Source: Planobispora longispora
Lineage (GTDB): Bacteria; Actinomycetota; Actinomycetes; Streptosporangiales; Streptosporangiaceae
Length of the DNA: 64,000 bases
Direction of reading: 5' to 3'
NCBI RefSeq assembly: GCF_016863135.1
Contig: NZ_BOOH01000011.1
Span: forward strand, 43,141 to 107,140
The notes under the pieces are model-generated. The model saw only the letters and a list, made by a program, of their open reading frames with translations, was not told the DNA's origin and did no database searches. Positions 16,042 through 41,509 of the stretch are shown here, piece by piece. The stretch's first letter is position 1, and each line of letters starts with the position of its first letter. Both the position numbers and the translations under genes were made by a program.

Positions 16042-16113
16042 GCGCTCGGGCGAAGGGGGCGTGCTCCGGCGAACGAGGGTGTGCTCAGGCGGAACGGGAG
16101 CGCGCTCAGGCGA
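16042..16113. repeat. four degenerate ~19-bp tandem repeats (GYGYGCTCNGGCGAAGG) abutting the P450 stop codon
   Basis: gcgcgctcgggcgaaggggg / cgtgctccggcgaacgaggg / tgtgctcaggcggaacggga / gcgcgctcaggcgaagacg. The last unit contains the P450 TGA (minus strand). Confidence 0.45.
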
Positions 16114-19243: not shown

Positions 19244-19275
19244 GGGAACTCCTCGCATCCCGTGGCCGGTGACCT

Positions 19276-19328
19276 CCGTACGGCACCGGCCATACACCGT
19301 ATGGCAGTAGCTACCATACGGCGTATGG
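19276..19328. promoter_or_regulatory. operator array in the P450/TetR divergent intergenic region
   Basis: CCGTACGG (19276-19283); CCATAC-acc-GTATGG (19290-19304); CCATAC-ggc-GTATGG (19314-19328). The two 15-bp palindromes are 24 bp apart centre to centre. The second overlaps the TetR ATG (19325). Confidence 0.55.
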
Positions 19329-19900
19329 CCGTGAGTGCGCGCAGGGGGGAGCCCCTGACGCTTGAGGAGATCTGCGCGACCGCCCTGCGGATGATCGACG
19401 CGGGCGGGGTGGACAGCCTGTCCATGCGCAAGCTCGCCGCCGAGCTCGACGTCAACCCGATGTCGCTCTACCACCACGTGGACAGCAAGACCGCGCTCCT
19501 GCAGCAGGTCTGCTCCATGGTGGCGCTCCGGCTCCGGCTGCCCGCCGACGACGGCACCCCGTGGCGGGACCAGCTGCGCGCCCTGGGATACGCCTACCGC
19601 TCCATCGCGCAGCGGCACCCCTCGCTCTGGCTGTACGTGCAGTCCCACCCGGAGGCGCTCAAGCACGACTACCTGCTGTGGGACGTGCTCAACCGGATCC
19701 TGGTCGCCGCCGGGGTCCCGCCGGAGCGGCTGGCCCACACCCGCAAGGCGCTGTTCACCTTCGTCTCCGGCTTCGTCTTCGCCGAGTGCGCCGGGATCCT
19801 CGCCGAGCAGGACGGCCCCGGAGGCGCCGCCGACGTCGACGACACCTTCGAGGTCGCCGTGGACCTCATCATCGCGGGCCTGTCGGCGGCCCGCCCCTGA
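19325..19900 (+). CDS. TetR-family transcriptional regulator (divergent from P450)
   Basis: TLEEICATALRMIDAGGVDSLSMRKLAAELDVNPMSLYHHV is a TetR HTH, followed by a TetR_C-like ligand domain. Confidence 0.8.
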   Translation: MAVSARRGEPLTLEEICATALRMIDAGGVDSLSMRKLAAELDVNPMSLYHHVDSKTALLQQVCSMVALRLRLPADDGTPWRDQLRALGYAYRSIAQRHPSLWLYVQSHPEALKHDYLLWDVLNRILVAAGVPPERLAHTRKALFTFVSGFVFAECAGILAEQDGPGGAADVDDTFEVAVDLIIAGLSAARP

Positions 19901-19981: not shown

Positions 19982-21292
19982 TCAGCCCTCGTCGCCGAAC
20001 CAGTTGCCGTGGAAGCCGGCGGGCACCCGGCGCGGCAGCCGCACCGCCGCCACCTGCTCCAGGGAGGCGGCGTCCAGCACCTTCAGCTCCGAGTCGTCCC
20101 CGGCGCTGACGACGGACATCAGCCAGCCGTCGTCCTCGGCCCGCGCGCCCTCCGCGGGCACGTACACGGCCTCCCCGGTCGTGCCGCCGGTCTCCTTGAC
20201 CCGGCCGGAGCCCGTGACCGTGTCGTACTTGACGATCGCGTCGCCGGTCACCGCGTAGAGGTAGCGGTTGGCCAGGCCGGTGCGGTCCCCGTTGAGGCTG
20301 GGGAACTCCACGTCCCGGTCGTCGAGCTGCTCCTCCTTGGCGGTCGCGCCGAGGGTCCAGCGGTACAGGGGCGCGCCGCCGAGCTCGGCGGCCGAGGCGG
20401 CCGGATCGAGATCCCCGCTGATCTCGCCCCAGATCCGCCGGAACGAGCCGGCGGAGTAGCGCACCGCGTCCAGCACGACCTGGCCCTCGTCGTCCTCGTG
20501 GGCGTTGCCGACGTGGAAGACGTAGCACGGGTCGATCTCGTGCCAGCGCACCTTCCCGCCGTCGCCGCCGTCGCGGCGCATGACGCCGAGCCGCGCGCCG
20601 TAGCCTTCGTCCCACCGGTACGGCATGGCGCCGCTCATGGCCGTCTCCAGGTCGAAGACCACCGGCAGGTCCAGCCAGACGACGTGGTTCTCGGTGATCG
20701 CGAAGTCGTGGATCATCGTCGGCCCGGGGACCTCGATCTCCCGGCTCTCGACCAGCTCGCCGTCCGCCGACAGCCGGTGGTAGGTGAGGTACGGCGGGGC
20801 GAAGCCGTACCCGAAGAAGAGCAGCTCCCCGGTCGCGGGGTCCTCCTTCGGGTGCGCGGTCATGGCGGTGGTGAGCCTGCCGCCGAAGTCGTGCGGGCCG
20901 AGGGTCTCCAGCTCCGGGCTGATCTCGTACGGCAGGCCGTTCTCGACCAGGGCGAGGATCCGGCCGGAGTGCCGGATCACGTGGGTGTTGGCGCTGACGG
21001 CGGCCAGGTCGAAGCCCTTGTCGGAGATGAACGGGGCGTCGTCGGTGAAGGCGGTGGTCTTCGTCCACCGGTTCCGGTACCACTCGGCGCGGCCCTCGCG
21101 CAGCCGGACGCCGTGGAGCATGCCGTGCCCCAGGAACCAGTGGCCGGGGTCCTGGCCGGGCAGCGGGTTGGGGCCGTTGCGGAAGTAGCGGCCGGTCAGT
21201 TCGGCGGGCAGTTCGCCGGTCACCGACAGGTCGGCGACGCTGATCTCGTCGGGGACGGGTGCGAAGTGCCCTTGCAGATAAGCGGGGGTCAT
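19982..21292 (-). CDS. carotenoid-cleavage oxygenase (RPE65/CCO family)
   Basis: Family-typical blocks FRNGPNP, HWFLGHGMLHG, HDFAITENHVVWLDLP and FHGNWF, including conserved His ligands. Alternative ATG at 21307. Confidence 0.8.
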   Translation of the reverse strand: MTPAYLQGHFAPVPDEISVADLSVTGELPAELTGRYFRNGPNPLPGQDPGHWFLGHGMLHGVRLREGRAEWYRNRWTKTTAFTDDAPFISDKGFDLAAVSANTHVIRHSGRILALVENGLPYEISPELETLGPHDFGGRLTTAMTAHPKEDPATGELLFFGYGFAPPYLTYHRLSADGELVESREIEVPGPTMIHDFAITENHVVWLDLPVVFDLETAMSGAMPYRWDEGYGARLGVMRRDGGDGGKVRWHEIDPCYVFHVGNAHEDDEGQVVLDAVRYSAGSFRRIWGEISGDLDPAASAAELGGAPLYRWTLGATAKEEQLDDRDVEFPSLNGDRTGLANRYLYAVTGDAIVKYDTVTGSGRVKETGGTTGEAVYVPAEGARAEDDGWLMSVVSAGDDSELKVLDAASLEQVAAVRLPRRVPAGFHGNWFGDEG

Positions 21293-21315
21293 GAGCCCTC
21301 CCAACATTCCAGTTG

Positions 21316-21377: not shown

Positions 21378-21947
21378 ATGAGCCTCCGTCACGCGGTGCT
21401 CGGGCTCCTCACCGAGGGCCCGGCCAGCGGCTACGACCTGCTGAAAGTCTTCGAGGTCTCGCTCGCCAACGTCTGGCCCGCCACCCAGAGCCAGCTCTAC
21501 GGCGAACTCGGCCGGCTGGCCGACGCCGGGCTGATCGAGGTCGTGGCCGAAGGCCCGCGCGGCCGCAAGGAGTACGGGCTGACCGACGCGGGCCTGACGG
21601 AGCTGCGCCGCTGGCTGATCGAGGTCGAGCCCGAGTCGTTCCGCCGCACCGACATGCTGCTGCGGGTGTTCTTCCTCGGCGTCGTCCGGCCCGAGGAGGC
21701 CCGGGCATACCTGCAGGAGCAGGGCACGGTGGCGGCCCGCGCCCGTGAGGACCTGGAGGAGATCCGCTCGGCCGCCGAGAAGGGCGACCTGGGGAACACG
21801 CCCCTGGCGGTCTACGGCCGCATCGCCCTCGAATGGGGACTGCGCTTCACCGTCATGCAGCGGGAGTGGGCCGAGTGGGCCGCCCGCCAGATCGACCAGA
21901 TCGAGGAGCAGAACAGCGTCGGCGCCTCCCGCCAGGATCTGCCCTGA
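21378..21947 (+). CDS. PadR-family transcriptional regulator
   Basis: LRHAVLGLLTEGPASGYDLLKVFEVSLANVWPATQSQLYGELGRLADAGLI is a PadR winged-helix motif. Confidence 0.85.
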   Translation: MSLRHAVLGLLTEGPASGYDLLKVFEVSLANVWPATQSQLYGELGRLADAGLIEVVAEGPRGRKEYGLTDAGLTELRRWLIEVEPESFRRTDMLLRVFFLGVVRPEEARAYLQEQGTVAARAREDLEEIRSAAEKGDLGNTPLAVYGRIALEWGLRFTVMQREWAEWAARQIDQIEEQNSVGASRQDLP

Positions 21948-21985: not shown

Positions 21986-22879
21986 TCAGGCGAGGACGCG
22001 GCCGACCACGCGGGCGTACATCCGGCCCGGGCTGGGCACCGAGGGCGGGGTGAGGAAGCCGGGGAGCATGGGGAGGTCCACGGCGAAGGGCTGCAGGCGC
22101 TCGTAGAGCGCCTCGACCCCGGCGGGGCGCCGGTCGGGATTCTTCTCCAGCAGGTCGGCGAGGAGACGGTTCAGCTCGGCGGGGACGCCGGGCACCGGCG
22201 GCGGGCGCTCCTTCACCTGCCGCTCGAACACGGCGTACTCGGTGGGGCCGGTGAACAGCTGCCTGCCGGTGAGCATCTCGTGGATCATGCAGCCCAGGGC
22301 GTACAGGTCGCTGCGCGGCCCGGCCAGGCCCCGCTGGATCTGCTCGGGCGCCATGTAGGACGGGGTGCCCAGGAGCTGGCCGATCCGGGTGAACCGGGTG
22401 GAGTCGGCCTCCCGGAGCATCGCCAGGCCGAAGTCCAGGACCTTGACGCTGCCGTCGGGGCAGAGCATCAGGTTGGTCGGCTTGAGGTCGCGGTGGTAGA
22501 TGGACAGCGCGTGGGCGGCCGAGAGCACCGCGCAGGCCTGGGCCGCGATCGCGGCGGCCCACGGCACCGGGAGCGGGCCGTGCTCGCTGACCAGGTCGGC
22601 CACGGTGACGCCCTCGATGAACTGCATCACCTGGAACAGGCGCTGGTCGAAGGTGCCGAAGTCGTACAGGACCGGGGCGCCGGGGTGCTCCAGCCGGGCC
22701 AGGATGCGGGCCTCGCGCATGAAGCGCCGCTCCAGCTCCTCGTCGGGGCCGGTGAGCAGGCGCATGATCTTGACGGCCACCCGGCGGTCGAGGTGTTTGT
22801 CATGACCGGCGTAGACCGCGCCCATCCCGCCCTGCCCCAGAGGGAGGTCGTCGAGAACGTAGCGGTCGCCGATGACCAT
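21986..22879 (-). CDS. Ser/Thr protein kinase, kinase domain only (297 aa)
   Basis: Gly loop LGQGGMGAVY, Lys in VAVKIM, catalytic loop HRDLKPTNLM, DFG (LDFGLA) and APE (SYMAPE). No sensor or TM domains. Starts 24 bp after the MTase stop. Confidence 0.85.
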   Translation of the reverse strand: MVIGDRYVLDDLPLGQGGMGAVYAGHDKHLDRRVAVKIMRLLTGPDEELERRFMREARILARLEHPGAPVLYDFGTFDQRLFQVMQFIEGVTVADLVSEHGPLPVPWAAAIAAQACAVLSAAHALSIYHRDLKPTNLMLCPDGSVKVLDFGLAMLREADSTRFTRIGQLLGTPSYMAPEQIQRGLAGPRSDLYALGCMIHEMLTGRQLFTGPTEYAVFERQVKERPPPVPGVPAELNRLLADLLEKNPDRRPAGVEALYERLQPFAVDLPMLPGFLTPPSVPSPGRMYARVVGRVLA

Positions 22880-22903
22880 CGACCCTCCCTGGACCCGTGG
22901 GCA

Positions 22904-24889
22904 CTAACCCCCCTGGCCGCACGGTCTCAGATGGCCGTCGGCCAGTCCATCAAAGCCTAGCCGGATCAAGGTCTCGCCCAGTGCCGCCGTCTCGCGCAAC
23001 CGGTCCTCCATCGCGGCCAGTTCCCGGAACGCCTCGCCGTAGCGCCGCTGCTCGGCCACCGGCAGCACCGGCACCCGGGCCCGGCGCACGTCGAGCCGGC
23101 TGGAGCTGGAATGCACGCGCGAGGAGTCCGCGGAGCGGAGGAACCCGGCGAGGAAGTGCGGGTCGAGCCGCTCCGGGTCCACCCGGTAGAGGGTGAGCTG
23201 CGGCCCGAGCGCGGCGCCGGCTTCGGCCACGGAGTCGGCGACCACCCGGACCGCGCCCAGGACGGTGGTCACGATGTCACCCGGGCCGACCATGACCAGG
23301 GCCGGGTCGGGAACGGTCCCGCCGGAGGGCGGCGTTCCCGCGGCGGCGTCCTCGGCCGTCAGGACCGGGACGGGCCCGGAGTCGGCGGTCAGCTTCGACG
23401 GGGCCGCCAGGATGGTGACCAGCCCCGCCTTGACCAGCTCGCCGACCGTCGTGGTGGGCAGCTCCTGCCGTTCGGTCAGCGTCTCCAGCTCCGGAGGGGA
23501 CTTCGGCAGCGCGGCCGACGCCTCCCGGAAGCGGTCGAGGGCGGCGGTGAAGTCGCGGGCGAAGTCCATCCCGCCCTGCTGCGGGCGGTGCCGCCCCGTG
23601 GCGAGGTCCACCTCGTCGTCGAGCAGGTCGATGATCCGCACGGTACGGCTGTCGCCGGTCAGCTCGGCCTCGGGATCCGCGGTGAAGGCGCGCCAGGCCG
23701 GTTCCACGACCGACAGGTCCTCACCGGCGTCCACCATCAGGACCTGCGACGGGGGCCGCTCGCCGGCCGGGCGGCGCAGCAGCCACAGGTCGGGGCCGCC
23801 CGGTCCCAGGGAGATCACCGCGCGGAGCGCCCCGGCCCGCAGCAGGTTTCCCCGGATCCGCTTGCCGGGGCGGCGGCTGGCCGCCGCGGCGGGCATCAGG
23901 ATCGCCACCAGGCCGCCCGGCCGCACGTGGGCCAGGCAGTGCTGCACCCAGGCGAGCTCCGGCTCGCTGCGCGGCGGCAGGCCGTACTCCCAGCGGGAGT
24001 CGCCGGTCAGCTCGTCGTAGCCCCAGGCCCGCTCGTTGAACGGCGGGTCGCAGAGCACCGCGTCGGCGAGGGCGCCGGCCAGGCCGTCCTCACGGAGCGA
24101 GTCTCCGGCCACGATCCGGGCCGGCGCCCCGCGCAGCAGCAGCCGCACCGCGGTGAGCAGGGCGTTCGTCTCACTGAGTTCCTGGCCGAGCGGGGTGTTC
24201 GCGCCCAGCAGGAGGGTGCCGACCCCGCAGGCGGGGTCCAGCACGGCGCCGCCGCCGGCCAGGCGCGTCATGAGCGCGGCCACGTCGTCCCTGGTGACCG
24301 AGAGCTGGCGGGAGTGCACCTCGACGTAGCGGGCGCAGAGGAACTCGAACGCGTCCAGCGGCCCGTTCTCCCGGGCCAGCCGGGAGACCAGCCGGAGCAG
24401 CGCGGGGTCGTGCGGCCGGAGGTCGGGCGCGCGCGGCAGGTCGGCCGTGGTGGCCGCCACCAGTGTGGCGAGGGAGGGCGCGTCGCGGTCGCCAGAGGAG
24501 CGGGAGCCGTCCCCGACGGGGGAGGGCCAGATGCGGCGGTCGCCGGAGAGCACCCGCGGGCCGTGCTCGCGCCAGCTCTCGGGGTCGCGGTGGAGGGAGA
24601 GCAGGAAGACGCCGACCTGTCCGACCAACTCGCCCAGGCGCAGGTCGTCGACCGCGGTCCGCATCCGCTGCCAGACTAGGTCGCCGAGGGAGACTTCGAA
24701 GGACTTGCCGTTGCCGCGCAGCCACGCGGTGACCTCGGACAGGGAGAAGAGGGGGCTGGAGGCGGTTCCGCCGATCGGCTGGGGGAAGTCATCGTGACGG
24801 CGGCGCCAGTTGCTCACCGCCGCCCGGCCGACATCGGCGAACCGGGCGATGTCGCCCGCGTTCACGGTGATCTCCTGGCTCTCCTCCAT
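22904..24889 (-). CDS. N6-adenine DNA methyltransferase fused to an N-terminal HTH and a C-terminal HsdS-like target-recognition domain (M-S fusion; no nuclease domain)
   Basis: Motif I VLDPACGVGTLL and motif IV LCDPPFNERAWGY (gamma-class DPPF). N-terminal HTH DIARFADVGRAAVSNWRRR. C-terminal TRD ends with ...VPVLPVAEQRRYGEAFRE, the HsdS-like conserved tail. An alternative GTG start at ~24865 has a better RBS (AGGAG). Confidence 0.8.
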   Translation of the reverse strand: MEESQEITVNAGDIARFADVGRAAVSNWRRRHDDFPQPIGGTASSPLFSLSEVTAWLRGNGKSFEVSLGDLVWQRMRTAVDDLRLGELVGQVGVFLLSLHRDPESWREHGPRVLSGDRRIWPSPVGDGSRSSGDRDAPSLATLVAATTADLPRAPDLRPHDPALLRLVSRLARENGPLDAFEFLCARYVEVHSRQLSVTRDDVAALMTRLAGGGAVLDPACGVGTLLLGANTPLGQELSETNALLTAVRLLLRGAPARIVAGDSLREDGLAGALADAVLCDPPFNERAWGYDELTGDSRWEYGLPPRSEPELAWVQHCLAHVRPGGLVAILMPAAAASRRPGKRIRGNLLRAGALRAVISLGPGGPDLWLLRRPAGERPPSQVLMVDAGEDLSVVEPAWRAFTADPEAELTGDSRTVRIIDLLDDEVDLATGRHRPQQGGMDFARDFTAALDRFREASAALPKSPPELETLTERQELPTTTVGELVKAGLVTILAAPSKLTADSGPVPVLTAEDAAAGTPPSGGTVPDPALVMVGPGDIVTTVLGAVRVVADSVAEAGAALGPQLTLYRVDPERLDPHFLAGFLRSADSSRVHSSSSRLDVRRARVPVLPVAEQRRYGEAFRELAAMEDRLRETAALGETLIRLGFDGLADGHLRPCGQGG

Positions 24890-24896
24890 ACTCGGT

Positions 24897-24913
24897 CACA
24901 GTAGTTGACTGTG
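24897..24913. promoter_or_regulatory. palindrome CACAGT-agttg-ACTGTG immediately upstream of the MTase start codon
   Basis: Read directly from the sequence. It sits 8 nt from the MTase ATG in the MTase/PP2C divergent region. Confidence 0.4.
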
Positions 24914-24973
24914 CTGAAATGGTCTACAGCCCGTTTGCTTGTGAAGTGCTTCAACCAGTGCTTTACTGCCTTC

Positions 24974-25771
24974 ATGGCACAAAACGAAGGACTGGCACTG
25001 CGCTACGCCGCCCGCTCCGACGTCGGGGTCCGCCGTGAGGCGAACGAGGACTCGGGCTACGCGAGCGCCCGCCTGCTCGCCGTCGCCGACGGCATGGGCG
25101 GCCACGCCGGGGGCGAGATCGCCAGCTCGCTCGCCGTCGCCGCCGTGGCAGCGCTGGACGACAGTCTTCCGAATACCGGTGTCGACCTCAAGGCCGCGCT
25201 GAAAGGCCTGGCCAAGGACATCAACCAGGCGTTGCGCGACACGGCCGAGCGGGAGCCCGCGCTGCGCGGGATGGGCACCACCCTCACCGCGATGCTCTGG
25301 GACGGCGACATGTTCGCCCTGGCCCACGTCGGCGACTCCCGTGCCTACATGCTGCGCGACGGCGCCCTCTACCAGATCACTCACGACCACACCCTCGTCC
25401 AGTCGCTGGTGGACGACGGGCGGATCACCCCCGAGCAGGCGGCCGAGCACCCGCGCCGGTCGATGGTCCTCCGCGTGCTGGAGGGCACCGGCGACGGCGA
25501 GCTCGACCTGACCCTCCGCGAGGCCCAGCCGGGCGACCGCTACCTCATCTGCTCCGACGGCCTGACCGCCGTCGTCGGCCCGGAGACCCTCTTCAACACC
25601 CTCACCGAGATCGACGAGCCCGACGAGGTCGCCCGCTGGCTGATCGACCTGGCCAACCGGGGCGGCGGCCCCGACAACATCACCTGCATCGTGGCCGACT
25701 TCGGCGCGCACGACGCGGGCGCGGAGCGGTTCGTCGTCGGCGCCGCGACGGAGCGCAAGCTCACCCCCTGA
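24974..25771 (+). CDS. PP2C-family Ser/Thr phosphatase (paralogue 1)
   Basis: LRYAARSDVGVRREANEDS, AVADGMGGHAGGEIAS, GMGTTLT and DGxxD...GGPDNITC are PP2C motifs. No obvious SD sequence. Confidence 0.85.
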   Translation: MAQNEGLALRYAARSDVGVRREANEDSGYASARLLAVADGMGGHAGGEIASSLAVAAVAALDDSLPNTGVDLKAALKGLAKDINQALRDTAEREPALRGMGTTLTAMLWDGDMFALAHVGDSRAYMLRDGALYQITHDHTLVQSLVDDGRITPEQAAEHPRRSMVLRVLEGTGDGELDLTLREAQPGDRYLICSDGLTAVVGPETLFNTLTEIDEPDEVARWLIDLANRGGGPDNITCIVADFGAHDAGAERFVVGAATERKLTP

Positions 25772-25793
25772 CGGCCGCCTTCAGGAGTCCCGG

Positions 25794-25815
25794 GCGGACG
25801 GCCGGCGGCGGCCGT
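25794..25815. terminator. GC hairpin between convergent PP2C and giant ATPase genes
   Basis: GGACGGCC-ggcggc-GGCCGTCC, an 8-bp stem between the stop at 25771 (+) and the stop at 25818 (-). Confidence 0.45.
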
Positions 25816-25817
25816 CC

Positions 25818-28800
25818 TCAGGCCTCCCGGGCGGGCAGCCGGTGGTGACGGCCGTTCTCCGGGATGCCGGACAGGCGGTCGGCGGCCTGCTCGATGGCGG
25901 TGCCGACCCGGTCGGCCAGCAGGCCGACCGCGCCGACGGCCCGGGTCACCGGGTCGTCTTCGGCGCCGCCGAGCGCCCTGGCCCGCACATAGGCGGCCTT
26001 CACCTCCGCCCACCGCTCGGCCTGCCCGGCGGTGAGCCTGCCGCGCAGCTCGGCCAGCTTCAGCAGGTTGGCCTCGGTCCCGGACGTGAGGGTCTGGGCC
26101 TCGCCGAGATAGTGATCGTCGATGACGGCCTCCAGCTCGTCGTCGTTCATCACCGGCACGACCCGCGCGGCCAGCTTGGTCATGTTCCGGTAGGACCCCT
26201 GGAGCTGGAACGGCGGCTCGGTCCTGGCGGCGTCGGACTGGGCGGCCGAGGCGATGTAGGCCCGGTTGACGGTCAGCACCACCCGCTGGACGCGGAGCAG
26301 CTTGCGCAGCACTGCGAGGACCTGCTCCAGCTCCACCTGCGAGTACGGGTGGGAGAGCCGGTCGGCGCGGACGGCGGGATCGCCCTGCGCGAGCCGTACC
26401 AGCAGGCGTACGTCGTCGCGCTCCCGGGTGGACAGCGGGGCGAGGACCGGGTTGGAGGTCAGCGCCGTGTCGATGTAGCTCAGCGCGAACAGCTCCTCCC
26501 GGCCCGAGAGCACGTCGCCGAGGTTCCAGACGTCGGCGCGGTTGGCGAGCATGTCGGGGACGCGGAACCGGCTGCCCGACTCGGTGTACGGATTGCCCGC
26601 CATGCAGACCGCGAAGCGCTTGCCGCGCAGGTCGTAGGTGCGGGCCCGGCCCTCCCAGACGCCCTCCACGCGGCGCTGGGCGTCGCACAGCGAGATGAAC
26701 TTCTGCAGCAGCTCGGGGGAGGTGTGCTGGATGTCGTCGAGGTACAGCAGCACGTTGGAGCCCATCTCCAGGGCGAAGTTGATCTTCTCGACCTCCTGGC
26801 GCGCGGTCGCGTCGGGGGCGTCGGCCGGGTCGAGCGAGGTGACCCTGTGGCCCAGCGCCGGGCCGTCCACCTTCACGAACATCAGGCCGAGGCGGTCGGC
26901 GACGTACTCCATCAGCGTCGTCTTGCCGTAGCCGGGCGGTGAGATGAGCAGCAGCAGGCCCATCTGGTCGGTCCGCTCGGCCGCGCCGGTCGCGCCCAGC
27001 TGCTTGGCCAGGTTGTCGCCGATGAGGGGGAGGTAGACCTCGTCGAGGAGCTGGTTGCGGACGAAGGCGCTCATCACCTTCGGCCGGTACTCCTCCAGGC
27101 GCAGCCGCTCGCGCTCGGCGGCGACCAGGGCGTCGCGCCGCTTCAGGTAGGACCGGTAGGCCGGCGCCCGGCGGGTCCCGAACTCCCGGGTCCTGGCGAG
27201 GAACTCGTCCAGGCGGATCGCGAGCCGGCCGCCGGCGATGCGCGGGTGCGTGCCGAGCAGGCCCTCGACGGTCGCGGTCAGCGCGGCCGACGAGTCGTGC
27301 CGGGGCAGCTCGCACAGCCGTACGGCCACCGCCTCGGGCAGCTCGCGGAGCTCGCGGAGCTCGGGCGAGCGCCCGAACGCGCCCAGCCACGCCTCGGCCA
27401 GCCGGTGCCGCCCCGGCAGGTCGCCCTCCAGGGCCCGCAGGTCGTTCTCGAACTCCTGACCCGGAGCCCCCGGGCCCCGCGAGCTCCGCGAGCTCCGCAG
27501 CGCCCGCTCGAAGCGGTCGAGCAGCGTCCTGGCCCCGACGCTCGTCACGAATCCGGGCGGGTCGCCGGCCAGTTCCTCGAACAGGTACTCCCCGGCGAGC
27601 TCGATATCGCCCTCGCCGTACGGCGCCGGCGCGCCGTCCGATCCGGGCGCGCCGCGCAACGCGGACACGAAGGACCCGACGGCGCGGGACAGGGCCCGGC
27701 AGGTCTCCCCGACCGCCTCCACCCGCCCGAACAGGGACCGCGCCCGCGCCAGCGAGGCCGCCTTCGTGGTCCACGACGCGCGGGCCGCCTCGTCGGTCCC
27801 GTGCGCCCAGAACAGCTGGGCGGCGGCCCGCGCGGACGGGGGATAGCGCAGCAGGCCCGCCCCCGCGTGCAGGCGGAGCAGGGCGCGGAGGATCAGCGCG
27901 GCGTCGTGGTCGTGGACGCCGCGCTCGTAGCCCTCGTCGTAGCGGGTCTCCGCCACCCCGCGGACGATCTCCGGCAGTTCCCCCCCGGCCGGCGCCGCCT
28001 CGTGGAGCGCGGTGAGCGAGATCGCCCTGTCGCCCAGGAGCAGCGTCCCGGCCTCGGCGGCGGCCAGGATCGAGGCGGCGAGGTGCTCGCCGCGGTAGAC
28101 CTCCGGCGACTCCGAGACCAGCAGCTGGGTCCAGAAGGGCCTGGTCGCCGCGAAATCGGGGTCCCGGACGGGGGAGCGGTAGCCGGTCCCGGTGACGGCG
28201 AAGGCCATCCCGTCCCCGTGCGGGACCAGCGTCAGATCGGCGGGCCGGGTGGTGACCGCGAACCGGTGCCGGCCCAGCCGGATGGTCTCGCCGCCGTCGG
28301 CGTACAGGTCGAGCCGGTCGCGCAGGGCACGGCCCGCCTCCTGCCGGGCCGCGGCGATCCGGCCGTCCAGCTCCTCGGCGCGCACCTGGTCGCCCAGCGC
28401 GCGCAGCTCCCCGGCCACGGAGCGCAGCTTGGCCACCATCGGGTCGGCGGCGAAGTAGGTGTTGACCTCGTCGAGCGAGCCCAGCGAGGCCAGGCGGCGG
28501 CGCACGCTCGCCAGGATCCGGGCCGCGGAGGAGGCCAGCCGGTCGGCGCGGCGGGCCCGATCGTCCAGCAGGGCCTGGCGGCGGGAGGAGAACGCCTCGT
28601 AGACGTCCTCCCGCTTGGAGGCGAGCCGGGCGAGGAAGTCGTCGAACTCGGCGAAGCGCGACTCCAGTGTCTCCAGCCGGAGCATCAGCCGGCCGAGCTG
28701 CTCCTCGCACCGCTCGGGGGTGTCGGCCACGGCCAGCGCCCCGGTGATCGCCTGCCCCAGCAGGGCGAACTCGGCGGCGAAGGCCGCGCGGCCCTCGGAG

Positions 28801-30920
28801 CCCAGCAGTTCCCGCCGCCGCGCCTCCAGCGTGGCCCGGGCCCGGTTGATCCCGCCGAGCACCGCGCCGACCCGCTCCAGGATCGCGGTGCGCACGGTCG
28901 CGTCGGCGATGTCGAGCGTGCCGACCACCTCGATCACGACTTCCAGGCCCTGGGACTGCCCGGCCAGCCGCTCGCCGAGCGGGCCGGCCCCGGCCGTGGC
29001 GGTGATGGCCCCGGCCTCGGCGACCAGCCGCTCGATCTCGGCGTGGTAGCCGGCGAAGGCGTCCTCGCCCTGGAGGAAGGCCACGGCCCGCCGCGCCGTG
29101 CCCGTCAGCTCGGACTCCAGCTCGGCGTCGATCCGGTCGATCCGACCGAGGTCCGCGTAGCGCAGCTCGCGCAGGGTCACCAGGCGTCCCCGCGCCCTGC
29201 GGAGCTCGGCGAGGCGGTCCACCCACCCCTGGGCGGAGCGGGGCGCCGCGGCCCGCGCCCGCCGTACGAGGGAGGCGGTCTCCTGCGCCGCCTCCTCCAG
29301 GGCGGCCGCCGCCTGGGCGGTGAGCGACTGGACCTTCTCGAACTCCTCCAGCACCTGCTCGGCCGTGGCCCGCACGTCGGCCAGCGGCCCGCTCAGCTCG
29401 TGCTCGCCCAGCCAGTGATAGTGGTCGGACACGCGGACGCAGGCCGCGATCAACGCCTCGAAGACGGGGACCGAGGGCGCCATCTCCTCGACGGCCGCGG
29501 TCACCGACAGGCAGTCGGAGATCCCGCGCACCAGCTCGGCGTTGCCGATCCGCTCCAGCGGGCCGGTCCCCACCGGCTGGGCCGCGGCGTAGACGTCGGA
29601 GGTGTACGGCGTCTGCCACACCTGCATCGGGTGGACCCGGGCGGGCTCCTCCGAGACGGCCCGGAACACCACCAGCGTCCCGTCGTCGAACAACGAGTAG
29701 CCGTGGCAGGGGATCGGCGTGGCGACCTGCTTGCGGATCACGTTGTACGGCAGCAGCAGCGACCGGCCGTCGGAGCGGGCGTGGAACACGTACAGCACGT
29801 CCTCGCCGTTGGCCGAGCGGATGACCCGCTCGAACTCCAGGCCGGCGACGTCGGTGTCGAAGGTCTTGCTCACCCCGGTGGACAGGTGGTAGCCGCCGGG
29901 GAAGATGATCCCCTGGTCCTCGGGGAGCCGCCGGCAGGCCTGGCCGATGCCGTCCAGCCGCACGACGTCCTTGGTCCGGGTGTTGAAGACCAGGTGCCGC
30001 CAGCCGGTCTCGTTGTAGGGCCGGACGCGCAGCAGGATCAGCGGGCCGACCCGGGCGTGCAGCACCTCGGCGTCGGCGAGGCTCTGCAGCGGCTCGGCCA
30101 CCGGCTCGCGGTAGACGCCCTCTCCGGTCTCGGTGTTGTTCTCGATCTTGATGGTGAGGTCGCCGCCGACGGTCTCGACGAACACCTCGCCCTGGATCGA
30201 GATGTGCGGGTGCCGCCCGAGGACGTGGTCGTCGCGGGTGGTCGCGGTCCACTCGAAGTCGTGGGACGGCGGGAACACGTGGTCGCGCTCGCCCCGGTCG
30301 TCGATGTAGGCCAGCGAGCCGTCCGCGCCGACCTGCCAGCGCAGCACCCTGATGTCCTGCGGGCCGGTCCGGAAGACGGCCAGCATCTTGCCCTCGACGC
30401 GGCGCAGCTGCAGCAGCCGGGTGTCGCGGTAGTAGCGGTAGAGCTCGGCGAAGTCCTCCTCGAACCGCGGGTCCCGGACCATCGGCGCGGGCTCGAACCG
30501 GAAGGCGTCGCCGTCCCGGCTGAAGCGGTGCGCGGAGAAGACGTCCTCGACGGTCGTCTCCGGCTTCAGCCCGATGAACACGTTGTAGCCGAACAGCATG
30601 AGGTCGCCGATCGACACGATGTCGCGGGGCACGCAGTTGTTCTCGGTGCGGATCCGCTCGGCGCCGATCAGGCGGAGCTCGGTCCCGCCGAACGCCTCCA
30701 GGCGGCGGGCGTTGAGCGTCTCGGCCCGCCGGGCCAGCTCCGCCGCCTGCTCGGCGAGCCGGGCGCGGAGCACCTCGTAGGTGCCCGCGTCCAGCCCCTG
30801 CCCCGCCCCGTCCAGCCGCTGCTCCGTCCCGTCCGGCGCAGTCGTCCCGGTCGTCGCAGTCGTTCCGGTCGTCCCGGTCTCTGCGGTGGTCACGTCCGTG
30901 CTGGTCACGTCTGGGGTCAC
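25818..30920 (-). CDS. giant (~1,700-aa) protein: low-complexity Thr/Gly N-terminus, large coiled-coil/helical middle, C-terminal AAA+ (MoxR/dynein-like AAA_5) ATPase module
   Basis: Walker A LLISPPGYGKTTL, Walker B VLLYLDDIQ and sensor-1 CMAGNP. Long Ala/Arg/Glu/Leu-rich heptad-like stretches. GTG start overlaps the flotillin stop (GTGA). Confidence 0.8.
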   Translation of the reverse strand: MTPDVTSTDVTTAETGTTGTTATTGTTAPDGTEQRLDGAGQGLDAGTYEVLRARLAEQAAELARRAETLNARRLEAFGGTELRLIGAERIRTENNCVPRDIVSIGDLMLFGYNVFIGLKPETTVEDVFSAHRFSRDGDAFRFEPAPMVRDPRFEEDFAELYRYYRDTRLLQLRRVEGKMLAVFRTGPQDIRVLRWQVGADGSLAYIDDRGERDHVFPPSHDFEWTATTRDDHVLGRHPHISIQGEVFVETVGGDLTIKIENNTETGEGVYREPVAEPLQSLADAEVLHARVGPLILLRVRPYNETGWRHLVFNTRTKDVVRLDGIGQACRRLPEDQGIIFPGGYHLSTGVSKTFDTDVAGLEFERVIRSANGEDVLYVFHARSDGRSLLLPYNVIRKQVATPIPCHGYSLFDDGTLVVFRAVSEEPARVHPMQVWQTPYTSDVYAAAQPVGTGPLERIGNAELVRGISDCLSVTAAVEEMAPSVPVFEALIAACVRVSDHYHWLGEHELSGPLADVRATAEQVLEEFEKVQSLTAQAAAALEEAAQETASLVRRARAAAPRSAQGWVDRLAELRRARGRLVTLRELRYADLGRIDRIDAELESELTGTARRAVAFLQGEDAFAGYHAEIERLVAEAGAITATAGAGPLGERLAGQSQGLEVVIEVVGTLDIADATVRTAILERVGAVLGGINRARATLEARRRELLGSEGRAAFAAEFALLGQAITGALAVADTPERCEEQLGRLMLRLETLESRFAEFDDFLARLASKREDVYEAFSSRRQALLDDRARRADRLASSAARILASVRRRLASLGSLDEVNTYFAADPMVAKLRSVAGELRALGDQVRAEELDGRIAAARQEAGRALRDRLDLYADGGETIRLGRHRFAVTTRPADLTLVPHGDGMAFAVTGTGYRSPVRDPDFAATRPFWTQLLVSESPEVYRGEHLAASILAAAEAGTLLLGDRAISLTALHEAAPAGGELPEIVRGVAETRYDEGYERGVHDHDAALILRALLRLHAGAGLLRYPPSARAAAQLFWAHGTDEAARASWTTKAASLARARSLFGRVEAVGETCRALSRAVGSFVSALRGAPGSDGAPAPYGEGDIELAGEYLFEELAGDPPGFVTSVGARTLLDRFERALRSSRSSRGPGAPGQEFENDLRALEGDLPGRHRLAEAWLGAFGRSPELRELRELPEAVAVRLCELPRHDSSAALTATVEGLLGTHPRIAGGRLAIRLDEFLARTREFGTRRAPAYRSYLKRRDALVAAERERLRLEEYRPKVMSAFVRNQLLDEVYLPLIGDNLAKQLGATGAAERTDQMGLLLLISPPGYGKTTLMEYVADRLGLMFVKVDGPALGHRVTSLDPADAPDATARQEVEKINFALEMGSNVLLYLDDIQHTSPELLQKFISLCDAQRRVEGVWEGRARTYDLRGKRFAVCMAGNPYTESGSRFRVPDMLANRADVWNLGDVLSGREELFALSYIDTALTSNPVLAPLSTRERDDVRLLVRLAQGDPAVRADRLSHPYSQVELEQVLAVLRKLLRVQRVVLTVNRAYIASAAQSDAARTEPPFQLQGSYRNMTKLAARVVPVMNDDELEAVIDDHYLGEAQTLTSGTEANLLKLAELRGRLTAGQAERWAEVKAAYVRARALGGAEDDPVTRAVGAVGLLADRVGTAIEQAADRLSGIPENGRHHRLPAREA

Positions 30921-33085
30921 TCCTGGACCGTGTCGACGACGGAGCCGCCGGCGGTGATCGGGGCACCGCCGTCGCCCAGGATGTCCACGGCCGCCACGGG
31001 GGTCATGGCGGGCGCCGTGGTCGTCACGGTGGACGCGGGGCTCAGCAGTTCGCGCAGCTTCTGCGACTCCGCGCCGCCGCCGTTCATCAGCTTGACCAGC
31101 AGGGCCGAGAGCGACAGGTCCCGCACGTCGCCGCTGCCCAGCGAGCCGAGCGCCCGGGTCAGGTCGGCGGGCAGGCTCTGCGTCCCGTCCAGGTACGGCC
31201 CGGCGAGCGTGCGGGCCACGTCGGAGCTGTCCACGAAGCCGTCCAGGCTCTTGCCCAGGGTGACCGAGCCGACCAGCTTGTCGAAGAACACGCTGTCGCC
31301 GCCGACGATGTCGATGTTGGCCTTCTCCAGTCCGGCGGCCAGCACCACGGCCTGCGCCTCGGCGAGCTTGACCTGGGAGGTGACGCCGGCGAGCCGGATC
31401 TCCTTCTCGGCCTCCAGCCGCAGGCGGTACTCCTCGTGGCCGCGGCTCGCGTCGTCGAGCGCCGCCAGCGCCGCCGCCTTCTCGGTCAGGCCCTCGGCCT
31501 CCGCCTTCAGCTTCTCGCCGATCGTCGCGGCCGCGGCCAGCGCCTTCTCCCGCTCGCCCTCGGCCTCGGCCTTGAGCTTCTCGCGGATCGCGGTGGCGAC
31601 GGCGTGCGCCCTGGCCTGCTCGCCCTCCGCGGCGGCCAGCGCCTTCTCCCGCTCGACCGCGGCCTCGGCGCGGCCGACCTTCTCGATCGCGGCGGCGTTG
31701 CGCTCGGCGACCTGGACCTCGGCCAGGCCGACCGCGGCGGCCTCGGCCTGGACGCCCTCGGCCAGGCGGATCTTGGCGCGGGCGTCGAGCTCGGCGGCCT
31801 GCTGGCGCGACTCGGCCATCACCAGCGCCTCGCGCGCCTTGTACTTGGAGGCGGCCTCGGCGGCCTCGGCGGCCTTGATGTCCTTGACCAGGTTCTCCTG
31901 GGACTCCGCCTCGGCCTGGATGATCACGGCCTGGCGGGTCCGCTCGGCCTCCTCGACCACCCGCAGGCGCTTGATGCTCTCCTCCTGCTCGGCGACGGTC
32001 TTCTCGACCGCGATGCGCTCCCGGACCACCTCGGCGATCGAGCGCTTCTCGCCCTCGAGCTCCTTGTCCTTGGCGATGCGCGACAGCTCGGTCTCGCGCT
32101 CGCGGGAGATGACCTCCAGCATGCGGTCCTTCTCGATGCGCTCGCTCTCGATGGCGATGACCCGCTCGCGGTTCTTGGCCGCCACGGCGATCTCGCGGGC
32201 CTGGTTCTCCTGCTGGATGCCGAGCTGCTCCTGGGTGCGCAGGTCGGCGGCGTGCGCCTTGAGCCGCTCCTCGGCCTGGACCCGGGCGATCTCCGCCTCC
32301 TCGCGGGCCCGCATGGTCTCGATCTCGCGCTTCTGCTTGATCTCCGCGTCGGTCTGGCGCCGCTGCAGTTCGAGGATCGCCTCGCGGGCGTCCACGTTCT
32401 GGCGGGTGATCTCCTTCTCCTCGCGCCGCTGGAAGTCGTTGGTCCGCACGTGCTCGATCGCGGTCAGCTCGGTGATCTTCCGGATGCCCTGGGCGTCGAG
32501 GATGTTGTTCTTGTCGAGGGAGAGCAGCGAGGTCTGCTCCAGGTAGTCGATCGCCGCGTCCTCGAGGCTGTAGCCGTTCAGGTCGGTGCCGATCACCTGG
32601 ATGATCTGGTCGCGGAAGTGGTCGCGCTGGGTGTAGAGGTCGACGAAGTCGAGCTGCTTTCCGACGGTCTTGAGCGCCTCGGAGAACTTGGCGCTGAACA
32701 GCTCCTGCAGCGTCTCCTGGTCGCTGGCCCGGGCGGTGCCGATCGCCTGCGCGACCTTCACCACGTCCTCGGCGGTCTTGTTGACCCGGACGAAGAACGT
32801 GATCTTGATGTCCGCCCGGATGTTGTCCCGGCAGATCAGGCCCTCGCGGCCGGACCGTTCGATCTCGATGGTCTTCACCGAGATGTCCATGACCTCCGCC
32901 CGGTGGAGCACGGGCAGGACGACCGCCCCGGTGAAGGTGACGTCGACCTTGTTGACCTTGGAGACGATCAGGGCCTTGCCCTGTTCGACCTTGCGGAACA
33001 GGCGGGTGACCGTGATCACCATGGCGATGGCGACGAGGAGGACGACGGCGAGGAGCACGCCGAAGCCGGTGGAGATGACGTCCAT
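30917..33085 (-). CDS. flotillin (SPFH/band-7 domain, FloT/YuaG-like) with long EA-rich coiled-coil
   Basis: N-terminal TM (GVLLAVVLLVAIAMVI) and SPFH core. An extended ...AEAEGEREKALAAA... repeat region is typical of flotillins. Confidence 0.9.
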   Translation of the reverse strand: MDVISTGFGVLLAVVLLVAIAMVITVTRLFRKVEQGKALIVSKVNKVDVTFTGAVVLPVLHRAEVMDISVKTIEIERSGREGLICRDNIRADIKITFFVRVNKTAEDVVKVAQAIGTARASDQETLQELFSAKFSEALKTVGKQLDFVDLYTQRDHFRDQIIQVIGTDLNGYSLEDAAIDYLEQTSLLSLDKNNILDAQGIRKITELTAIEHVRTNDFQRREEKEITRQNVDAREAILELQRRQTDAEIKQKREIETMRAREEAEIARVQAEERLKAHAADLRTQEQLGIQQENQAREIAVAAKNRERVIAIESERIEKDRMLEVISRERETELSRIAKDKELEGEKRSIAEVVRERIAVEKTVAEQEESIKRLRVVEEAERTRQAVIIQAEAESQENLVKDIKAAEAAEAASKYKAREALVMAESRQQAAELDARAKIRLAEGVQAEAAAVGLAEVQVAERNAAAIEKVGRAEAAVEREKALAAAEGEQARAHAVATAIREKLKAEAEGEREKALAAAATIGEKLKAEAEGLTEKAAALAALDDASRGHEEYRLRLEAEKEIRLAGVTSQVKLAEAQAVVLAAGLEKANIDIVGGDSVFFDKLVGSVTLGKSLDGFVDSSDVARTLAGPYLDGTQSLPADLTRALGSLGSGDVRDLSLSALLVKLMNGGGAESQKLRELLSPASTVTTTAPAMTPVAAVDILGDGGAPITAGGSVVDTVQE

Positions 33086-33097
33086 GGATTCCCTCGG

Positions 33098-33745
33098 CTA
33101 GATGGGACGGTGGGGGTCGAGTTCCGCGTCGTACGGCATCACCCAGAAGAATTCGCCGCCGGAGTCGTAGGCGAAGATCAGGGCGGTGCTTCCGGCGAGG
33201 AAGACGTCGTCGCCGGTCTGTCGGACTTGTACGAGAGCGGAGGACCCGTCGGGAGCGGTGACCTCGGCCTGGCCGAAGTCCCCTCCCACCCGGCCCGTGC
33301 GGATGACGCAGGTGCGGCCCACGAAGTCGGCGCGGGACGGCGCGCGCTCCTTGCGCGCGACGCGCCGCAGGGGCAGCGTCAGCAGGCGGGTGCCGAGCCA
33401 GGCGCAGCCGATCGCCGCGACGGGCACGGCGGCCAGGGCGGCCGTGCCGGTGATGAGGGCGGACCCGGCGAGGCTGGCGAACCAGGCGATGGCGACCAGC
33501 AGCGAGACGGTCACCGAGACCGGCACCCCGCCGAGCCCGAGGCCCGCCAGGAAACCCGCCGCGCCCGAGAGCTCCGCGTCGCCGATCGCGTCGTCACCCG
33601 CGACGCCGTCGCCCGCCGCGTCGTCGAGCACGGCGCCGCCGAGAAGGGCGAGCAGCCAGTAACCGACCACCACGATCAGCGGGAAGGTGAACAGAACGGT
33701 CGGGAACGACAGCGCGGTCTCGGTGAAGCTGCCCAACTGGCCCAT
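33098..33745 (-). CDS. NfeD-like membrane protein (YuaF-like, OB-fold C-terminus)
   Basis: Multiple TM helices then a C-terminal beta-rich soluble domain. Immediately upstream of flotillin on the same strand, as in nfeD-floT operons. ATG at 33745 chosen because the upstream in-frame extension is AT-rich and non-coding-like. Confidence 0.7.
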   Translation of the reverse strand: MGQLGSFTETALSFPTVLFTFPLIVVVGYWLLALLGGAVLDDAAGDGVAGDDAIGDAELSGAAGFLAGLGLGGVPVSVTVSLLVAIAWFASLAGSALITGTAALAAVPVAAIGCAWLGTRLLTLPLRRVARKERAPSRADFVGRTCVIRTGRVGGDFGQAEVTAPDGSSALVQVRQTGDDVFLAGSTALIFAYDSGGEFFWVMPYDAELDPHRPI

Positions 33746-33899
33746 CGATGCGGAAGATCTCCCTGTCCGGTGTGCTCGCCTGCTCCCCCGAGCGTGTGGC
33801 TTCACCCGGATAAAGAATGAGTAAAAGAAATAGTTCCCGAAGCCTGAAAAATCTGGATATGCGAGGGACGGGAGGGGTGGAAGGGGGGCGCGGGAGAGC

Positions 33900-34010
33900 A
33901 CAGGAGGGCGCGGACGCGCGGGGGGAACCGCGAGAGGGGCGGACGCGCGTGGGGAGGCGTAAGGGCGCGGACGCGCGTGGGGAACGGCGTGGGAGGGCGC
34001 ACGGCATCGC
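33900..34010. repeat. G-rich tandem ~29-bp repeats (GGGCGCGGACGCGCGTGGGGA...) with many GGGG runs
   Basis: ggcgcggacgcgcggggggaacc / gagaggggcggacgcgcgtggggaggcgtaa / gggcgcggacgcgcgtggggaacggcgtggga. The G4-capable runs are on the + strand, i.e. the non-template strand for the minus-strand operon. Confidence 0.5.
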
Positions 34011-34066
34011 CGCCCGGGCGGGGACGGGGCGGGCGGGGCGTCGGGGCGCGGACGGGCGCGCGGGTG

Positions 34067-34831
34067 CTACGGGGCGGCCGAGCCGACGATCAGGGGAGTG
34101 TTCTGGACGGAGTCCGGCTCGTCGACCACGTCGGCCACGACACAGGTGATGTTGTCCGGGCCGCCGCCCTCGCAGGCGAGATCGATGAGCGTGCGGATCA
34201 CGGTGTCGAGATCGTCGATCGTGGCCAGCACGTGGCGGAGCTGCTCGGCCTCCACCACGCCGGACAGGCCGTCGGAGCAGAGCAGGTAACGGTCTCCCAC
34301 CTCGGCGTCCCGCAGCGACAGGTCGGCCTCGACGCCGTCGCTGCCGTCCAGGACCTGGAGCAGGATCGACCGGTGGGGATGCCGGGCGGCCTCCTCGGCG
34401 GTGATCCGGCCGTCGTCCATCAGGGTCTGGACGAGCGTGTGGTCGTAGGTGATCTGGTAGAGGTCGCCGTTGCGCAGCAGGTAGGCGCGGGAGTCGCCGA
34501 TGTGGGCGAGCGCGACGCGCGGGCCGTCCCAGAGCATCAGCGTCAGGGTGGTGCCCATCCCGGTGAGACTGGGATCCTGCTCGGTCAGCTCCCGCAGCCG
34601 CTGGTTGGCCCGGCGGACCCCGCTCTCGGCGGCGGCGACCAGATCGGAGGGGGGCTCGTGGTCCAGGGGTGAGATGGCCGCGACAGCGGCCGAGCTGGCG
34701 ACCTCCCCGCCGACGTGCCCGCCCATGCCGTCGGCGACGGCGAGCAGCCGGACACCGGCGTAGGCGGCGTCCTCGTTGCCCTGGCGGACCTTGCCGACAT
34801 CGGAACCCGCCGCGTAGCGGAGCGTGATCAT
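34067..34831 (-). CDS. PP2C-family Ser/Thr phosphatase (paralogue 2)
   Basis: MITLRYAAGSDVGKVRQGNEDA, AVADGMGGHVGGEVAS, GMGTTLT and GGPDNITC. Roughly 65-70% identical to paralogue 1 by eye. The larger track ORF upstream is antisense to prfC. Confidence 0.85.
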   Translation of the reverse strand: MITLRYAAGSDVGKVRQGNEDAAYAGVRLLAVADGMGGHVGGEVASSAAVAAISPLDHEPPSDLVAAAESGVRRANQRLRELTEQDPSLTGMGTTLTLMLWDGPRVALAHIGDSRAYLLRNGDLYQITYDHTLVQTLMDDGRITAEEAARHPHRSILLQVLDGSDGVEADLSLRDAEVGDRYLLCSDGLSGVVEAEQLRHVLATIDDLDTVIRTLIDLACEGGGPDNITCVVADVVDEPDSVQNTPLIVGSAAP

Positions 34832-40590: not shown

Positions 40591-40845
40591 TCAGGGGCGA
40601 CGGCGAGAGAACAGGCGTGCCCTGCGCCGGGCACGCCTGAACCAGGCGATATCGAACCGCCCACGCCGTACGGCCCGCACGAAGGCTGCCCACTCGTCAG
40701 CAGTGAACGTCAGGACCGATCCGGTACCGTCGTCCTTGCTGTCGCGCACCCCCACTCGGCTGCCGTCGAAAGCCAACTCCACACAGCTTCCGCCGTTGCA
40801 CGGCCGGTGCCAGGCGCTGGGGTTGAACGGAGTTTTCCCCGTCAT
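40591..40845 (-). CDS. DUF397 domain protein (copy 1, C-terminally extended)
   Basis: SAWHRPCNGGSCVELAFDGSRVGVRDSKDDGTGSVLTFTADEWAAFVRAVRRGRFD fits the DUF397 pattern (W.KSS.C..G.CVEVA...VRDSK...G..L.F....W.AF). RBS GGGAGAG. Confidence 0.65.
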   Translation of the reverse strand: MTGKTPFNPSAWHRPCNGGSCVELAFDGSRVGVRDSKDDGTGSVLTFTADEWAAFVRAVRRGRFDIAWFRRARRRARLFSRRRP

Positions 40846-40936
40846 GCGCTCTCCCGAAAAGATCGACTACACGGAGATGGGGCGCAATGTCGGAAGTATC
40901 ATAATATACGTTTTTATAAATTTAATGTCTCTTTTA

Positions 40937-40969
40937 GGTGTTAAAGGTACCGGGGTCGAGGGAGTCGGC
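40937..40969. terminator. 9-bp stem hairpin downstream of DUF397 copy 2
   Basis: GGTACCGGGG-(13 nt)-CCCCGGTACC, followed on the minus strand by CTTTAA and AT-rich sequence. Confidence 0.45.
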
Positions 40970-40990
40970 CCCGGTACGGCGCCGGACCCG

Positions 40991-41478: not shown

Positions 41479-41509
41479 GAGCCGAGGCCCGTACGGAAGG
41501 CCTCGGCTC
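41479..41509. terminator. perfect 11-bp stem hairpin downstream of DUF397 copy 3
   Basis: GAGCCGAGGCC-cgtacggaa-GGCCTCGGCTC. Confidence 0.45.

Follow-up and report, generated by a model that had tools for sequence, protein, structure and literature searches.

A giant DUF3686 AAA+ protein in a YqiK-type flotillin operon of Planobispora longispora, and a neighbouring methyltransferase-kinase-phosphatase unit that very probably forms a separate module

The SPFH2 operon class pairs a gene for an NfeD protein with a gene for a flotillin, as in yqiJ-yqiK of Escherichia coli and yuaF-floT of Bacillus subtilis (Hinderhofer et al. 2009, PMC2636767). A longer operon was described computationally by Ravi et al. 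(2024, PMC11237479). It joins a CesT/Tir-PspA dyad to a YqiJ/YuaF protein with three transmembrane (TM) segments, a flotillin and a protein with β-propeller, coiled-coil and AAA+ parts. The operon follows PspA genes in Bacteroidota and Proteobacteria. The authors state that the abbreviated operons, which have no PspA, are the more widespread ones and may act with PspA encoded elsewhere. Here we describe an actinomycete locus that carries the last three genes of this series. It lies in a 64-kb stretch of contig NZ_BOOH01000011.1 of Planobispora longispora (the window; positions are counted from its first letter). About 13 kb of the window contain genes for an NfeD-like protein, a flotillin and a 1,700-residue protein, the giant (module A). 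Beside them are genes for a PP2C phosphatase, a DNA methyltransferase and a Ser/Thr kinase (module B). An earlier annotation made by a model from the letters alone (the sequence-only reading) had joined all of these, with further neighbours, into one system. We are highly confident that the stretch instead holds two independent conserved modules, which are neighbours only in a few Streptosporangiaceae. The reason is that the module A trio has no conserved fourth gene and that module B recurs without a flotillin or a giant.

Genes were called from third-position GC content (GC3) and frame analysis, and domains were assigned by Pfam, NCBIfam and PADLOC scans. The window has a G+C content of about 72%, and the GC3 of true reading frames is 0.92-0.99. 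The genes listed in the sequence-only reading were all recovered by these analyses, at or near the places it gave them. Module A comprises the following features.

25818-30920, minus strand: the giant, 1,700 amino acids, with DUF3686, DUF7902 and AAA domains (Pfam)
26241-27062, minus strand: AAA+ module of the giant, about residues 1287-1560, with Walker A SPPGYGKTT, Walker B LYLDDIQH, sensor-1 MAGNPYT and an Arg in PDMLANRAD
29415-30740, minus strand: DUF3686 domain of the giant, residues 61-502, β-rich and propeller-like, after a long N-terminal helix
30917-33085, minus strand: YqiK-type flotillin, 722 amino acids (family-level evidence and synteny)
33098-33745, minus strand: NfeD/YqiJ-like membrane protein, 215 amino acids from MGQLGSF (GC3 frame plot and TM scan)
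33746-34066, minus strand: non-coding stretch of 321 bp, 5' of the NfeD-like gene, with no coding GC3 signal in any frame

Module A is strongly conserved. An alignment of the DUF3686 domain was scanned against one genome per species, and more than 592 genomes contained a relative. The best 80 loci of the giant gene were taken with 10 kb on either side, and the window proteins were compared with them by tblastn. Upstream DNA was present in 78 loci, which could be tested for the order of the trio. The NfeD-like, flotillin and giant genes follow one another on the same strand in 76 of these 78, including a Thermoanaerobaculia metagenome-assembled genome (MAG) and a Deltaproteobacteria MAG. In about 70 of the 78, tblastn places an NfeD-like gene 5' of the flotillin. 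Unbiased clustering of all GC3-supported neighbouring open reading frames (ORFs) at the 80 loci returned the trio families in 77, 76 and 50 loci. The commonest family after them occurs in only 12, and such further families are genus-specific housekeeping genes. This clustering detected no conserved fourth gene beside the trio.

The order of the trio is kept beside relatives of 28-46% identity in low-GC bacteria, Pseudomonas and Hymenobacter. At 28-34% identity, in DNA of 28-49% GC, a TM protein of 205-245 amino acids is followed by a flotillin of 660-683 amino acids and then by the giant. In the window, the flotillin stop and the giant start overlap by 4 nt (GTGA), and the GTG start of the giant is preceded by GGAG. 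The same 4-nt overlap is present in 29 of 76 loci. The NfeD-like gene is separated from the flotillin gene by a 12-nt spacer, with no overlap. That an NfeD-flotillin pair is genetically coupled with a giant AAA+ protein, as proposed from the letters alone, is therefore confirmed and holds in the 76 loci. The description of the whole operon as GTGA-coupled was right for the flotillin-giant junction and wrong for the junction before it. A giant seems never to occur without a flotillin, but flotillins can occur without a giant. The dependence is one-way, since the E. coli yqiJK pair has no giant.

The flotillin has no Pfam hit of its own at E ≤ 5 except noise, and the NfeD-like protein has no Pfam or NCBIfam hit of its own, so both identities rest on family-level evidence. 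Of the 120 closest among 7,998 homologues of the 722-residue protein, most bear the name flotillin, YqiK or SPFH, and PF01145 is present in several. Among 15 aligned full-length family members, 4 match PF01145 (Band_7), the best at 1.5e-10. The family profile aligns with E. coli YqiK over 421 columns (hhalign 99.8%, E 1e-27). A PDB sequence search with this profile gave no match. The protein has a single N-terminal hydrophobic/TM segment (residues 1-33). Residues 216-580, the coiled-coil region after the SPFH domain, contain 21% Ala and 19% Glu. It combines an SPFH domain, an N-terminal anchor, an Ala/Glu-rich coiled coil and an NfeD-family operon partner, as expected of a flotillin. The NfeD-like protein has about three TM segments and probably a C-terminal β-rich domain. 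Its family profile aligns with E. coli YqiJ (DUF1449) over 153 columns (hhalign 84.8%, E 6.6e-6). On these profile comparisons, the two proteins are classed as a probable yqiJ-yqiK-type pair of the SPFH2 operon class. In E. coli and B. subtilis, as here, an NfeD-like membrane protein precedes an N-terminally anchored flotillin with an EA-rich coiled coil. The window flotillin is 170 residues longer. E. coli yqiK is followed by the sibD/ibsD genes, whereas here an AAA+ gene follows.

The giant matches DUF3686 (PF12458) at 3.2e-220, over profile positions 1-448 of 448 (731.7 bits against a cut-off of 25). It also matches DUF7902 at 1e-29 (103 bits against a cut-off of 26) and AAA_5/AAA. Its family, taken at E<1e-3, falls into 926 clusters when grouped at 50% identity, and relatives as distant as 28% identity retain the full architecture of 1,600-1,900 amino acids. 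Conservation spans all parts of the protein and is highest in the AAA module. The Walker A motif, the sensor-1 Asn and the candidate Arg finger are near-invariant in the family. Walker B (residues 1393-1400) has DD instead of DE, and this is near-invariant across 71 diverse members. The giant has no TM segment and is predicted to be soluble.

AlphaFold2 (AF2) models of the giant have pLDDT values of 89.8 and 93.0. The modelled AAA+ part has CbbQ and NorQ, both MoxR proteins, as its nearest structural neighbours, followed by dynein and midasin. PDB sequence searches, with the giant alone and with a profile of 71 sequences, gave matches only at the level of the P-loop. The predicted fold, Walker A, sensor 1 and Arg finger are those of MoxR-class AAA+ proteins. 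Described members of this class, such as CbbQ, NorQ and RavA, have about 270-500 amino acids and usually have VWA-domain partners (CbbO, NorD and ViaA). The giant differs from them in that its AAA+ module ends a 1,700-residue protein, in the lack of an adjacent VWA gene and in the DD of its Walker B. In Foldseek, β-propeller proteins match its N-terminal domain with TM-scores of at most 0.35. This modelled propeller is the weakest link in the match to the operon of Ravi et al.

The sequence-only reading had taken the arrangement of module A to be undescribed. It is already described, computationally, by Ravi et al. (2024, PMC11237479), with the same three genes, order and architectures. The window differs from the full operon of that paper in that the CesT/Tir-PspA dyad and the PLD gene are missing. 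None of the GC3-supported genes scanned in it has a domain of PspA or CesT, and module A is for this reason the abbreviated form. For its ATPase, the paper reports neither a Pfam identity nor a structure or an experiment. Synteny and architecture, rather than a shared accession, suggest that this ATPase is a DUF3686 protein.

PspA is linked to giants of this family in other phyla. On a Hymenobacter plasmid, the gene for a 43%-identical giant, named 'DNA repair ATPase', ends a series of Tir-chaperone, PspA, DUF1449 and flotillin genes. On pQBR103, the gene for a 46%-identical giant comes after genes for PspA, a rhomboid protein, DUF2491, DUF350, DUF1190, a glutathionylspermidine-synthase-like protein, a hypothetical protein and an SPFH protein. 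Both clusters match operons of PMC11237479. The pQBR103 trio follows on from a polyamine cluster of the PspA/YjfK-L-M-C-like kind. In pQBR103 (L092, NC_009444.1 85551-104269) and in a metagenomic relative (L084), the trio has a gene for a rhomboid intramembrane protease on its 5' side.

SPFH scaffolds are paired with ring ATPases at the membrane in HflK/C-FtsH and in the prohibitin-m-AAA protease pair. Module A is alike in logic. It has no protease, and its motor would be of the MoxR/dynein class without the usual VWA partner. Cryo-EM papers on FtsH-HflKC and on QmcA-YbbJ are cited in PMC13086221. We infer that module A may be an AAA+ remodeller that is coupled to a flotillin and serves in membrane stress or maintenance, and we hold the remodeller mechanism to be about evenly balanced. 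The proposal starts from the observed gene content, synteny, translational coupling, predicted folds and PspA linkage in other phyla. It would add to these a physical flotillin-giant complex, a substrate and a role in stress. The flotillin, with its single N-terminal TM segment, and its NfeD-like partner would form an SPFH assembly at the membrane, on its cytoplasmic side. Translational coupling would keep synthesis of the soluble giant in step with that of the flotillin. The giant may dock through its propeller-like and helical N-terminal half. Its MoxR/dynein-class AAA+ ring would then assemble, remodel or clear flotillin-associated protein/membrane assemblies under membrane stress or during maintenance. 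We have moderate confidence in the overall picture of two modules, one of them a flotillin/AAA+ remodeller.

Several points weigh against this picture. The link to PspA-type (PSP) envelope-stress systems is drawn by analogy with other phyla, and the window has no PspA. The DD of Walker B suggests unusual ATP-hydrolysis chemistry or slow turnover, and the kinetics of the ATPase may be unusual. No VWA-domain partner was found among the window genes around the operon, and the 80 loci offer none as a conserved fourth gene. What is known of DUF3686 proteins comes from their sequences and predicted structures. The two modules are adjacent both in the window and in one Streptosporangium locus (L001), and a lineage-specific functional link between them is conceivable.

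Module B contains three genes.

21986-22879, minus strand: Hanks Ser/Thr kinase, 297 amino acids, soluble (Pkinase, 7.8e-46)
22904-24889, minus strand: 661-residue protein with a helix-turn-helix (HTH), a γ-class N6-adenine methyltransferase and a C-terminal region like a target recognition domain (TRD) (Pfam N6_Mtase, 1.1e-21)
24974-25771, plus strand: PP2C phosphatase PP2C-1, 265 amino acids (Pfam PP2C_2, 2.2e-16)

The kinase gene starts 24 nt after the methyltransferase gene. Its VAVK, HRDLKPTN, DFG and APE motifs are intact. The methyltransferase has the motifs DPACGVG and DPPF. In PADLOC, it matches MTase_I at 1.5e-92 over residues 8-362, with a mad1-like HTH at residues 9-60 and a weak match to Specificity_I at residues 505-646. 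PP2C-1 starts at the ATG at 24974, not at 24905. Its NCBIfam Stp1 score is 217 bits, under the cut-off of 230 bits. The PP2C-1 gene diverges from the methyltransferase gene across 84 bp and converges on the giant gene, so it belongs to the methyltransferase side. It had been placed at the edge of the flotillin operon by the sequence-only reading, which its orientation contradicts.

Full-length homologues of the methyltransferase are 54-89% identical and occur mostly in Streptosporangiales. They are present in most genomes of several genera. A divergent PP2C gene stands beside the homologue in all four of the other contexts, and a gene for a kinase of 296-297 amino acids follows it in three. 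No flotillin or giant gene was found near the homologue in these four contexts. The unit is flanked by the same CHAP-domain and sugar-binding-protein genes in [Actinomadura] parvosata (L081) and in a contig labelled Nocardia aurea (L091). These shared flanks reflect either a conserved context or a mislabelled contig.

Most likely, module B consists of an orphan DNA methyltransferase and a kinase and phosphatase dedicated to it. A literature search on MADS and on methylase, kinase and PP2C combinations found no paper that describes it. Tentatively, it could be an undescribed actinomycete unit, spread across genera, in which reversible Ser/Thr phosphorylation turns the orphan methyltransferase on or off and which stands beside the flotillin operon by chance. 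Such a unit may serve as an epigenetic switch or as a restriction-less defence.

Closer to known systems, but unlikely, is the explanation that module B is a restriction-less defence of the Pgl/BREX or MADS kind. Pgl/BREX type 2 and MADS are defence systems with a methylase and a Ser/Thr kinase. Module B joins a Hanks kinase and a phosphatase to an N6A methylase, a combination that resembles Pgl, and PADLOC gives matches in this direction. The kinase matches PD-T4-6 (PDLC04042), a single-gene kinase defence, at 1.7e-93 over its full length and mad6 at 2.6e-65, and the methyltransferase matches mad2 (1e-15) besides MTase_I. The PD-T4-6 models carry no curated cut-off and describe the Hanks fold in general, which the strong kinase matches probably reflect. 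The kinase also matches NCBIfam PknB_PASTA_kin at 1.4e-76, with 258.8 bits, below the cut-off of 450. NCBIfam scores for the system families fall far under their cut-offs (PglW, 44.8 against 990; MAD6, 133.7 against 460; MAD2, 18.1 against 720; hsdM, TIGR00497, 15.2 against 242.75). PglX, PglY and PglZ had no NCBIfam or PADLOC match, and the PP2C of module B is unrelated to PglZ. No HsdR, HsdS, nuclease partner or further mad gene is adjacent to the methyltransferase gene. The proteins of module B are 3-5 times smaller than those of Pgl/BREX type 2 and MADS, there is no ATPase, and the methyltransferase is conserved like a core gene in identity, in occurrence within genera and in the flanks common to L081 and L091. 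Membership in BREX type 2/Pgl, MADS or type I restriction-modification was rejected on the family cut-offs and the absence of adjacent system genes. The Pgl/BREX resemblance suggested from the letters alone fails on the same cut-offs.

Defence has also been considered for module A, as a membrane-acting anti-phage or abortive-infection system. In its favour, defence systems often contain giant coiled-coil NTPases, systems of the PSP type respond when phages damage the envelope, and copies of module A occur on megaplasmids such as pQBR103. PADLOC, however, has no match for the flotillin or the NfeD-like protein, and the giant has only a 15-bit match at Walker A. Identity of the giant across actinomycete families is 70-84%. 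Its gene stands in stable chromosomal positions with housekeeping genes as neighbours, and it shows no GC anomaly. No phage record matched the giant. Matches were found in 13 of 72,556 plasmid records, several of them multi-megabase and chromosome-like in size. We regard this explanation as very improbable.

In the composite interpretation, the eight genes together would make up a single membrane-associated machine for signalling or defence, with a raft-scaffolded AAA+ complex and the methyltransferase under the control of the kinase and phosphatases. Besides the genes of the two modules, it includes two neighbours.

21378-21947, plus strand: PadR-family regulator (Pfam PadR, 1.8e-11; Vir_act_alpha_C, 1.2e-12)
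34067-34831, minus strand: PP2C phosphatase PP2C-2, 254 amino acids (PP2C_2, 3.5e-11)

In favour of it, the genes are neighbours both in the window and in one genome of Streptosporangium (L001), and the flotillin operon has a PP2C on both sides. The two PP2Cs are paralogous, as the sequence-only reading had said, with 62% identity. The neighbourhoods of the 80 loci speak against it. Homologues of the methyltransferase, kinase and PP2C-1 lie within 10 kb of the giant in L001 only and are absent from this range in the other 79 loci. PP2C-2, RF3 and GFO oxidoreductase homologues lie within 10 kb in two loci, and PP2C-2 is missing from the other 78. In L001 and L002, PP2C-2 is 5' of the trio. There is no fourth conserved neighbour, and the divergent PP2C and methyltransferase-kinase genes stand together elsewhere without a flotillin. 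The kinase, both PP2Cs and the methyltransferase have no TM segment. Only five loci, all from Nonomuraea, have a clear PadR homologue (54-66% identity) within 10 kb of the trio, and there it stands on the opposite side; L062 has a match of 30% that was left out of this count. PadR was rejected as a regulator of the trio on this evidence. It is a neighbour outside both modules, and PP2C-2 is a lineage-specific neighbour. The inclusion of kinase, phosphatases, methyltransferase and PadR in the flotillin unit is thus not supported. The sequence-only reading had itself said that its system would collapse into adjacent genes if homologues were not co-localised in other genomes, and we found that they are not. 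The composite interpretation is highly improbable.

Nor is the locus an island. Its G+C content is 0.70-0.77 and its GC3 0.92-0.99, and codon usage and GC equal those of the flanking DNA. A horizontally acquired island was ruled out by this composition.

The weakest explanation, that the giant is a true DNA-repair ATPase that follows the flotillin gene by chance, has the Pfam and NCBI naming and a weak RuvB_N similarity on its side but is scarcely credible, because the RuvB match covers the P-loop only (about 22 bits against cut-offs of 27 in Pfam and 282-299 in NCBIfam), no nuclease or DNA-binding domain was detected in the giant, its structural neighbours are MoxR and dynein ATPases, its gene has an obligate linkage to genes for membrane proteins and is translationally coupled with them, and no paper was found that supports the name. 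That name, 'DNA repair ATPase' at NCBI, derives from the Pfam description of DUF3686 as 'ATPase involved in DNA repair'. A literature search for DUF3686, PF12458 and 'DNA repair ATPase' with flotillin found no paper in the library searched. The database name is probably misleading and is spreading through annotations.

The 321-bp stretch before the NfeD-like gene is presumed to be the promoter region of module A. A consensus scan of it found no σ70-like site. Promoter and terminator consensus scans of 21.3-35.2 kb found only one promoter-like site, which is 5' of padR, and a single terminator-like site, which lies within the kinase gene. Such a poor yield is expected for a high-GC actinomycete. 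An Rfam scan of the window gave no match.

Other features of the window are outside the two modules. The only compositional anomaly is a patch with 57% G+C, against about 72%, at 40591-42711. It contains an XRE-HTH/DUF5753 gene (41818-42711, minus strand) and three small ORFs that by eye are DUF397-like (40591-40845, 40991-41230 and 41525-41797, all minus strand). The patch resembles the WhiJ/AbaA-like paralogous clusters typical of actinomycetes. A gene at 16106-19738 (minus strand) encodes a 1,210-residue single-chain fusion of P450, flavodoxin and FAD/NAD reductase, an architecture like that of P450 BM3. Beside it, a gene at 19982-21307 (minus strand) encodes an RPE65-family carotenoid oxygenase. 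Three consecutive TPR-rich genes lie at 10065-14757 (minus strand). The last of them (13423-14757) encodes a 444-residue protein with TPR and a classical AAA ATPase, unrelated to the giant. A light-response-like cluster at 57625-61552 encodes a 2-thiouracil desulfurase/DUF1722 protein, an ECF sigma factor, a LitR-like protein with MerR and B12-binding domains, and a photolyase FAD domain.

In the chromosome of a high-GC actinomycete, close spacing of genes cannot be taken as evidence that they form a system. The methylase-kinase-phosphatase unit offers a candidate case of DNA methylation regulated by phosphorylation. The locus adds an actinomycete member to the computationally described flotillin-AAA+ operon, with a giant that is probably mis-named. 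Bacterial flotillins are much studied, and their mechanism is still debated. The DUF3686 family is large, it includes some of the largest proteins of its host bacteria, and it seems to occur only beside a YqiK-type flotillin. This apparent pairing points to an ATP-driven partner for flotillin assemblies, in a logic like that of FtsH with HflK/C. The DUF3686 giant gives a concrete handle on what flotillin operons may do under membrane stress.

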